The notes below the pieces were generated by a model, which saw only the letters and a list, made by a program, of their open reading frames with translations, was not told the origin of the DNA and did no database searches. From Rickettsiales bacterium (lineage in GTDB: Bacteria > Pseudomonadota > Alphaproteobacteria > Rickettsiales > UBA998), in the NCBI GenBank assembly GCA_019749855.1, contig JAIEPI010000132.1, positions 1 to 42,573 of the forward strand: a stretch of DNA of 42,573 nt, written 5' to 3'. A program made the position numbers and the translations under genes. Shown piece by piece: positions 41,786 through 42,573 of this stretch. Each line of letters starts with the position of its first letter. Positions within the stretch are counted from its first letter, which is position 1.

Positions 41786-41807
41786 TTTCTCTTACATGCC
41801 AATCGAA

Positions 41808-41893
41808 CTATTCGATAATGCTGGCGACGACGCCGGCGCCGACGGTGCGTCCGCCTTCGCGGATCGCGAAGCGCAAGCCCTCATCCATCGCAC
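41808..41893 (-). pseudogene. Displaced 3' fragment of an EF-Tu gene (last 27 codons plus stop)
   Basis: The minus strand encodes [27 protein letters not shown]. It aligns with 42326-42413 (the true tuf end) at about 77/88 nt, with only one amino-acid change (K to S). Similarity stops abruptly at 41893/42413. Confidence 0.85.
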
Positions 41894-41948
41894 AGGACAT
41901 GTCTGAGCAAAACCAAAAAGGCAAGGGTTTTCGCTACGCATCACCCGC

Positions 41949-42239
41949 TTAAACACAACGGCCTGCGCCTTTTTGAGGCAGCGGCTTAACATGCCCCAGC
42001 GCATCATGAATCTGACGCAATGTTCCAAAGAAGGTGGTCCTGGCCTCGCTCGCGCTTACCGTGCCATATGCTTCAGGTAGGCTCTCGAGCCCACCTTTCA
42101 GTAAAAGAGGACATTTGATATCAAGAGCGTATTGCGCTCCTCCATTGTGATGGAGCGTCGCTGAGAAAGCCATTTCAGTACCCACCACTTCTTTAAGCTC
42201 TTGCGCCAGCAGGGCAATAGACAACGAGTCGTTATTCAT
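41949..42239 (-). CDS. Orphan 96-aa protein between tuf and the tuf 3' fragment
   Basis: ATG preceded by GAAGGGA about 8 nt upstream, starting 19 nt after the tuf terminator T-tract. No family recognised. Confidence 0.5.
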   Translation of the reverse strand: MNNDSLSIALLAQELKEVVGTEMAFSATLHHNGGAQYALDIKCPLLLKGGLESLPEAYGTVSASEARTTFFGTLRQIHDALGHVKPLPQKGAGRCV

Positions 42240-42257
42240 AACTTATCCCTTCCATCA

Positions 42258-42291
42258 TAAAAAATGCCCGGGTTAATTATCACCCGGGCAT
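42258..42291 (-). terminator. Rho-independent terminator of tuf
   Basis: Perfect 9-bp stem ATGCCCGGG/CCCGGGCAT with a 10-nt loop, followed by TTTTTT on the minus strand. It lies 37 nt after the tuf stop. Confidence 0.85.
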
Positions 42292-42327
42292 CTCTTTATT
42301 TATGAAGATATCGTGAAGTTTTCTAAA

Positions 42328-42573
42328 CTACTCGATAATTTTAGCAACGACGCCAGCGCCGACGGTGCGGCCACCTTCGCGGATCGCGAAGCGCAGGCCT
42401 TCATCCATCGCAATCGGTGCAATCAGCTGCACTTCCAGCGAGATGTTGTCACCCGGCATCACCATCTCGGTGCCATCTGGCAGCTTGATCGCGCCGGTCA
42501 CATCCGTCGTGCGGAAGTAAAACTGCGGACGGTAGTTGCTGAAGAACGGCGTGTGACGGCCACCTTCATCTTT
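42328..42573 (-). CDS. tuf: Elongation factor Tu, C-terminal 81 codons (5' part lies beyond the window)
   Basis: Hand translation: [81 protein letters not shown], with stop TAG at 42330-42328. Confidence 0.97.

Follow-up and report, generated by a model that had tools for sequence, protein, structure and literature searches.

How does the end of a gene come to stand a second time, detached from the rest of the gene, a few hundred nucleotides behind the complete one? The question is raised by the tail of a 42,573-nt stretch of DNA from a Rickettsiales bacterium, contig JAIEPI010000132.1 of assembly GCA_019749855.1. The stretch is the whole contig and is here called the window; all coordinates are positions in it, and the coding strand at its tail is the minus strand. 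There the 3′ end of tuf, the gene of elongation factor Tu (EF-Tu), is present twice, 520 nt apart, with a small orphan open reading frame (ORF) in between. The organism is an uncultured freshwater alphaproteobacterium. By NusG, its closest genomes are the metagenome-assembled genomes UBA1002 (L003, about 94–94.9% identity) and UBA998 (L004, 88%); to the sister lineages L083 and L165/L166 the NusG identity is 95.5% and 88.7%, respectively. The locus is a real, lineage-specific and decayed insertion scar, of a known general kind but at an unusual target. As to its origin, we tentatively favour an integrase-type insertion at the tuf 3′ end, similar to that of e14 or phage 21 in icd, of which a remnant without a recombinase would be left.

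Read on the minus strand, the tail starts with tuf, which runs off the end of the window, and proceeds through the insert to the detached tuf end and the next gene, as follows:

42328–42573, minus strand: 3′ part of tuf, the last 81 codons and TAG (stop at 42328–42330); the frame is open to the window edge, and the amino acid identity to genes annotated as 'elongation factor Tu' is 80–86%.
42326–42413, minus strand: proximal repeat copy, the working tuf end, with TT after the stop; 27 sense codons, 6 differences in 81 nt from the tuf end of L083.
42259–42296, minus strand: terminator hairpin 1 between tuf and ORF96, an inverted repeat (ATGCCCGGGT/ACCCGGGCAT) followed by a T-run; it matches in a terminator scan and resembles the tuf terminators of L083 and L165.
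41949–42239, minus strand: ORF96, an orphan and the sole cargo of the insert, with a GGAAGG Shine-Dalgarno sequence 8–9 nt upstream.
41894–41948, minus strand: 55-nt spacer from the ORF96 stop to the distal repeat, read from the sequence; it ends in the near-palindrome CAGACATGTCCTG.
41806–41893, minus strand: distal repeat copy, the detached last 88 nt of tuf, with TT after the stop; no tuf body lies upstream, and an independent 633-nt contig spans it.
41754–41791, minus strand: terminator hairpin 2 (AAAGCCCGGCGC/GCGTTGGGCTTT and a T-run), matching the tuf terminators of L083 and L165 in position and sequence.
41285–41740, minus strand: ORF151, outside the insert and resident in the clade; it marks the ancestral position downstream of tuf.

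The duplication itself is evident from both alignment and repeat search. Positions 41806–41893 match 42326–42413 over 87–88 nt with 10–11 mismatches (41806–41892 against 42326–42412 in the repeat search, 87 nt at 89% identity), and TAG is kept in both copies, as the preliminary description of this DNA had stated. The similarity begins abruptly at TGCGATGGATGA (41893/42413) and extends through the stop codon and the following two bases (TAGTT). The open EF-Tu frame ends in the proximal copy, and the working tuf is intact beside the insert. The same description let the similarity end sharply on both sides. This holds for the 5′ edge only: 3′ of the stop the strong identity ceases, yet a weak homology persists through the terminator hairpin, with z = 3.2 in a global alignment, a value reached by 4 of 500 shuffles. 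Both post-stop stretches look like the tuf terminators of the sister lineages (z about 5–6).

The divergence of the two ends is more telling than their similarity. Nine of the 27 shared sense codons differ, eight by a single synonymous change and one by a double change (AAA to AGC, lysine to serine). Neutral decay would let about 28% of random changes be synonymous, and under this assumption the observed excess has a probability of P = 2.5 × 10−4; the earlier remark that the copies differ almost only at synonymous sites and in one residue stands. The raw synonymous difference between them is about 0.38. Because eight of the nine changed codons are synonymous, the two ends diverged within two different functional tuf genes and do not represent a decaying local duplicate. 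One of them was either imported or stems from a divergent paralogue.

The paralogue leads to a purely intragenomic origin. The detached fragment could be derived from a second tuf, the one in the str operon, or from a local duplication of old date, and could have been placed by ectopic recombination between paralogues; conversion between tufA and tufB would later have made the working end uniform again. That tuf paralogues undergo gene conversion, which can extend past the stop codon, is well established. Moreover, the contig breaks off 246 nt inside tuf, a behaviour typical of assemblies at repeated genes, a second tuf copy therefore probably exists, and the coding-constrained divergence would equally fit a copy from a paralogue with a different 3′ end. 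However, paralogous tuf copies are normally near-identical, and an exchange between them explains neither the 432-nt orphan insert nor the sharp boundary 88 nt before the stop. In four metagenomes that contain the organism, no contig of at least 97% likeness joins a distal-type end to a tuf body, which at 3–6x coverage is weak evidence. On balance, we consider an intragenomic origin unlikely.

The contig end deserves a remark of its own. Position 42573 lies 246 nt inside tuf and thus further in than the usual assembly k-mer, which suggests that the two tuf copies of the genome may differ somewhere in their last 100–200 nt.

Is the arrangement real? A gene as conserved and as often repeated as tuf is a classic spot for misassembly of metagenomes, and the window, a contig of metagenome type, has its end in this very gene. 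A chimeric join of tuf reads from two organisms was therefore considered; the preliminary description had named an assembly artefact among the findings that would refute its reading. The unique joints, however, recur with 0 mismatches in contigs from independent samples and assemblers. Two contigs from two samples, L001 (Logan) and L002 (ENA), were assembled independently and are 100% identical over ORF96, the tuf fragment and ORF151; L001 in addition covers the junction of the tuf stop with terminator 1. The 633-nt contig from a biofilter metagenome (run X5) covers 41539–42171, i.e., the distal copy with both flanks, again with 0 mismatches, and exact-match pieces of the locus are found in freshwater and drinking-water runs (X1, X2, X3). 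Misassembly or misbinning is excluded for practical purposes.

The sister lineages reveal what is old and what is new. In L083 and L165 the order is tuf, terminator, ORF15x, tRNA-Trp, secE and nusG; the cassette is lacking there, and tuf directly adjoins ORF15x. In L003, tuf and its terminator are followed by tRNA-Trp, and neither of the small ORFs is present. The terminator behind the distal copy aligns with the tuf terminators of L083 and L165, and ORF151 beyond it is syntenic with their ORF15x. The distal copy thus occupies the ancestral position of the tuf end, because its downstream terminator and ORF151 match these sister lineages. Since the latter carry empty sites, a 520-nt block, composed of one tuf end and a 432-nt interior (terminator 1, ORF96 and spacer), is the part that is new in the lineage of the window. 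The empty sites by which a gene-3′-end integration scar is recognised are provided by L083, L165 and L003, and the opposite case considered in the preliminary description, that all relatives share the arrangement and none has an empty site, is contradicted by the same three. A search of metagenome contigs for close relatives by NusG yielded none, the best match having 74% identity. Nor was an empty-site or circle joint of this very species seen in the metagenome contigs, although Logan contigs drop rare variants; the joints that were seen belong to other organisms.

How could an integrase have made such a scar? The ancestral order would have been tuf, terminator, ORF151, tRNA-Trp and secE. The incoming element would have carried an attachment (att) site of about 88 nt resembling the tuf end and probably extending into a terminator-like stretch. 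One reciprocal crossover in the tuf 3′ end, with the geometry of a site-specific integrase of the tyrosine type whose attP contains a copy of the target gene end, would have left an intact tuf, then the element, then a detached second tuf end beside the old downstream DNA. Since then the element would have been reduced to 432 bp, a terminator and the orphan ORF96, if it had not always been that small. Lacking a recombinase, it would depend for any movement on an integrase provided in trans. We infer, rather than observe, that the joints were made by a site-specific recombinase and not by illegitimate recombination, which end was imported, and whether the crossover fell somewhere in the 88 nt or at the stop.

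The scheme is not without precedent. In Escherichia coli K-12, e14 and phage 21 use icd; the duplicated gene end, of which icdC is the 3′ fragment, differs mostly at synonymous sites, and one or two residues are changed (PMC13626634; Hill et al. 1989, PMC210168). Like icd, tuf is a protein-coding housekeeping gene that is intact beside an insert delimited by a long second copy of its 3′ end, and the differences are mostly synonymous. What characterises an integration scar of the e14/icd type, a bracketing repeat with an intact gene and synonymously biased copies, is found here: the 87–88-nt direct repeat of the tuf end brackets the 432-nt insert, and the functional gene is kept. The dissimilarities are also obvious. 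e14, a prophage remnant of 15 kb, has its own integrase, whereas the insert at tuf measures 432 bp, contains a single orphan ORF and yielded no recombinase. For e14 it is known which end came with the element; for the tuf locus both assignments are possible.

The neighbourhood offers a second scar. About 660 nt beyond the first one, the window displays the same geometry once more, an intact gene, an insert and a detached 3′ end:

41146–41221, minus strand: intact tRNA-Trp (CCA anticodon), identified by tRNA detection.
40968–40993, minus strand: second, detached tRNA-Trp 3′ end (T-loop to CCA and beyond), identified by repeat finding, about 150 nt downstream of the intact gene and followed by a terminator and then by secE, nusG, rplKAJL and rpoBC.

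The tRNA-Trp 3′ end, from the T-loop to CCA plus a few bases, occurs twice at a distance of 171 nt (40968–41164); the repeat comprises 26 nt with 2 mismatches, 21 nt being perfect. The two copies bracket about 150 nt that open with a terminator-like hairpin (41109–41146), and behind the downstream copy stands CCATGCCA, which matches L165. Among 144 alphaproteobacterial tRNA-Trp loci, this duplication is seen in the window alone. The T-loop is a classical sublocation of integrase crossovers in tRNA genes, and 3′-end duplications are the rule for integrases and exceptional for illegitimate recombination. A T-loop sublocation class of tyrosine integrases in tRNA genes was reportedly delineated by Williams in 2002, and the tRNA-Trp duplication has exactly the anatomy of a tRNA-gene integration scar. 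The tuf scar shares the geometry, but its target is protein-coding and its repeat is four times longer. For two adjacent scars, each unique among the sampled relatives, integrase-type events are a simpler explanation than a pair of illegitimate joins, both of them atypical. It is because of these side-by-side scars of the same geometry that we rank the integrase first. Apart from the tRNA, no Rfam family was found in the region.

The main rival is homology-facilitated illegitimate recombination with DNA of a related bacterium, which de Vries and Wackernagel as well as Prudhomme and colleagues are said to have described in 2002. According to this explanation, which needs neither mobile element nor integrase, a linear donor fragment with tuf, terminator 1, ORF96 and about 55 nt more came from a clade member that has ORF96 in the variable slot after tuf. 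One of its ends would have paired with the homologous, conserved tuf, the other would have been joined illegitimately 88 nt before the recipient's tuf stop, and the recipient's native tuf end would have been left as the detached distal copy. Indeed, the conserved tuf could serve as a one-sided anchor for an adjacent foreign gene. The geometry is compatible with such a product. The proximal end together with terminator 1 looks like a natural, contiguous tuf 3′ region of the clade (6/81 from L083; terminator z about 5), the 11/81 by which the distal copy differs from L083 are usual for pairs at this genomic distance, and no recombinase or att-like element was found.

The slot after tuf also fits a donor of this kind. 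Across about 50 alphaproteobacteria the distance from tuf to nusG ranges from 363 nt to 9 kb, and the interval is therefore a variable slot. Between tuf and secE it is empty in L003, occupied by ORF15x in L083 and L165, and otherwise filled in L004, L085 and many Caulobacterales. In L004 (1–400) a reverse-strand ORF lies directly upstream of the secE promoter in place of tRNA-Trp, and L085 has a 129-amino-acid ORF between tRNA-Trp and secE (L085:558–1736). The adjacent genes secE and nusG (40639–40830 and 40101–40634) disagree in their relatedness: NusG is 95.5% identical to that of L083 and 88.7% to that of L165, SecE 82.5% and 88.9%, respectively. This discordance hints at recombination among these lineages inside the tuf–nusG interval.

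Why, then, is illegitimate recombination not our first choice? In experimental systems, the recipient DNA beyond the anchor is normally lost or exchanged in the process. It is atypical for the joint to lie within the anchor again and thus to double 88 nt of it: the usual outcome is a replacement or deletion, not a duplicated anchor end. The tRNA-Trp duplication with its T-loop boundary would require a second atypical event. Finally, the donor-type locus, ORF96 after tuf, was not found in 5.8 billion proteins or in contig look-ups. We regard this route as a serious possibility, but a less likely one than the integrase. The preliminary description had also mentioned a patch imported from another lineage. 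This alternative is still a live rival; the synonymous divergence indicates that one copy came from another functional tuf.

Several points weigh against the integrase. First, no integrase, excisionase or recognisable remnant of either was detected in the insert or in the 42.5-kb window, of which ten large ORFs were scanned. The insert holds ORF96 only, where an integrase gene or its remnant near the att site would be expected; that the interval lacks an integrase had been noted before, and family searches of the insert and the ten ORFs agree. Further, no intact element and no second detached tuf end showed up in about 50 alphaproteobacterial tuf–nusG loci, the INPHARED phages, the PLSDB plasmids or IMG/VR; the intact relatives that the preliminary description proposed to look for did not turn up there, and among the roughly 50 loci with a tuf end and nusG, the window is the only one with a second tuf end. 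A tblastn search with the EF-Tu C-terminus against phages and plasmids returned whole tuf genes or host contamination only. ORF96 has no homologue in any other context: a word-indexed search of 5.8 billion proteins yielded none. Also, 432 bp is very small for the remnant of an element. The weak homology that reaches into the terminator would be equally expected of two orthologous tuf-downstream regions from related genomes. Finally, the proximal copy is nearer to the sister tuf genes than the distal one (6 versus 11 differences from L083), both values lying inside the orthologous range of the clade. What had been described as the footprint of site-specific integration is thus confirmed as a lineage-specific insertion at the tuf 3′ end, with empty sites and one copy from another functional tuf; the integrase or a remnant of it is the part that is missing.

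Which of the two ends is foreign? The distances between tuf ends were counted as differences over the last 81 nt (60 nt only for L003):

L083: proximal 6, distal 11.
L165: proximal 11, distal 16.
L003 (60 nt only): proximal 11, distal 12.
Proximal versus distal: 10.

Unique states are more numerous in the distal copy, and unrelated alphaproteobacterial tuf ends are no further away from it than the host's own. In the clade, true orthologues differ at 6–15 positions per 81 nt, and pairs at this nusG distance usually at 9–18, according to a calibration with 47 genomes. Because both copies fall within the range of orthologous divergence of the clade, either polarity is possible; the distances and the nusG calibration gave conflicting weak signals on which we do not rely.

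Remnants that have no integrase and lie between att sites are known as cis-mobilisable elements (CIMEs); an example is found at the 3′ end of fda in Streptococcus thermophilus. The tuf locus has the characteristic composition of a CIME, att-flanked cargo without recombination and transfer genes: a small cargo lies between direct repeats of a gene 3′ end, no genes of either kind were found in it, and in principle it might be mobilisable in trans. It differs from CIMEs in that its repeats are long (88 nt) and 12% diverged, and in that a parent integrative and conjugative element or prophage at the same site is not known in the clade.

The 3′ flank of tuf is not a textbook att site. The preliminary description had called it not commonly described, and our literature searches likewise found no description of tuf as an att site, including the proviral tuf-terminator site mentioned here. 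In IMG/VR, nevertheless, tuf lies at the edge of more than 20 proviruses predicted for low-GC bacteria, together with a convergent tyrosine integrase gene that ends 80–100 nt after the tuf stop. The integrases have 350–400 residues, and all ten that were tested match PF00589 (Phage_integrase). These proviruses have the hairpin of the tuf terminator (AATAGCAAGGGTTACA...CCTTGCTATTTT) as their common core, and arm-type direct repeats come after it. L223 shows the hairpin without tuf and is attR-like; L217 looks like an unoccupied site. The contigs concerned are:

L178, L186–L189, L193–L196, L198, L201 and L217–L251.

These proviruses resemble the tuf locus of the window in that a tyrosine integrase acts at the tuf 3′ flank. 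They differ in belonging to other phyla, in having as core the post-stop terminator and not the coding end, and in being full-size prophages with an adjacent integrase. Because they carry an integrase directly after tuf, the tuf 3′ flank is a used integration site in nature. Moraxella phage Mcat7 was considered as another tuf-end case and rejected: its record contains tuf, but the integrase is 1 kb off and the annotated attL is elsewhere.

A near-perfect palindrome of 13 nt, CAGGACATGTCTG (plus strand, 41892–41904), extends by two bases into the detached tuf end at its 5′ boundary. It could be a recombinase site or mere chance.

If an integrase made the scar, the tuf end joins the short list of protein-gene attachment sites (icd, fda, guaA, prfC). 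Few bacterial genes are as conserved and as highly expressed as tuf, and small orphan genes could in this way be delivered to a universal, strongly transcribed locus in streamlined, uncultured freshwater bacteria. By looking for detached tuf ends, one could trace integrative elements that are otherwise hidden, and such ends are a pitfall to be borne in mind in tuf-based typing and in the assembly of metagenomes. At present, however, we deal with a decayed scar in a single lineage and with an orphan cargo, and the immediate importance is limited.

According to a bolder variant, the tuf 3′ end would be the attachment site for miniature cassettes of a family not described so far, which would be moved in trans, consist of tuf end, terminator, Shine-Dalgarno sequence and small ORF, and stack after tuf in alphaproteobacteria of freshwater. 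The most recent of them would be ORF96, the ORF151 family possibly an older, fixed module, and the tRNA-Trp scar would be due to the same or a related recombinase. This idea we deem even less likely than the intragenomic origin.

The two small ORFs are unrelated to each other, and neither matches Pfam, NCBIfam, PHROGs or PADLOC. The codon usage of ORF96 is host-like, and its coding score is positive solely in its own frame. An exhaustive phmmer search yielded weak matches only, to single leucine-rich repeat (LRR) units of large NLR-like proteins. More precisely, residues 46–87 (LLLKGGLESLPEAYG..., 41979–42104) give weak, repeated matches to LRR units of NB-ARC/TIR-LRR proteins (E = 2 × 10−6 to 7 × 10−5). 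We regard them as a motif-level resemblance; ORF96 might be the relic of a larger LRR gene, or the motif might have arisen by chance. Its AlphaFold2 model is of low confidence (pLDDT 59). A readthrough fusion of ORF96 with the tuf fragment was considered and rejected: they share the frame, yet two in-frame stops intervene.

ORF151 has two homologues only among the 5.8 billion proteins, with 52% and 44% identity, and both are located between tuf and tRNA-Trp–secE–nusG. The family thus has three members (41285–41740 in the window, L083:220–678 and L165:1018–1458), is restricted to the clade and always lies between tuf and tRNA-Trp. Because both homologues occupy the identical position, ORF151 is a resident gene of the clade. 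AlphaFold2 predicts with confidence (pLDDT 84) a six-helix bundle for which no fold match was found in the PDB, and the family is characterised by the motif series FFDPS...FDHG...GxDDGQD...HYY.

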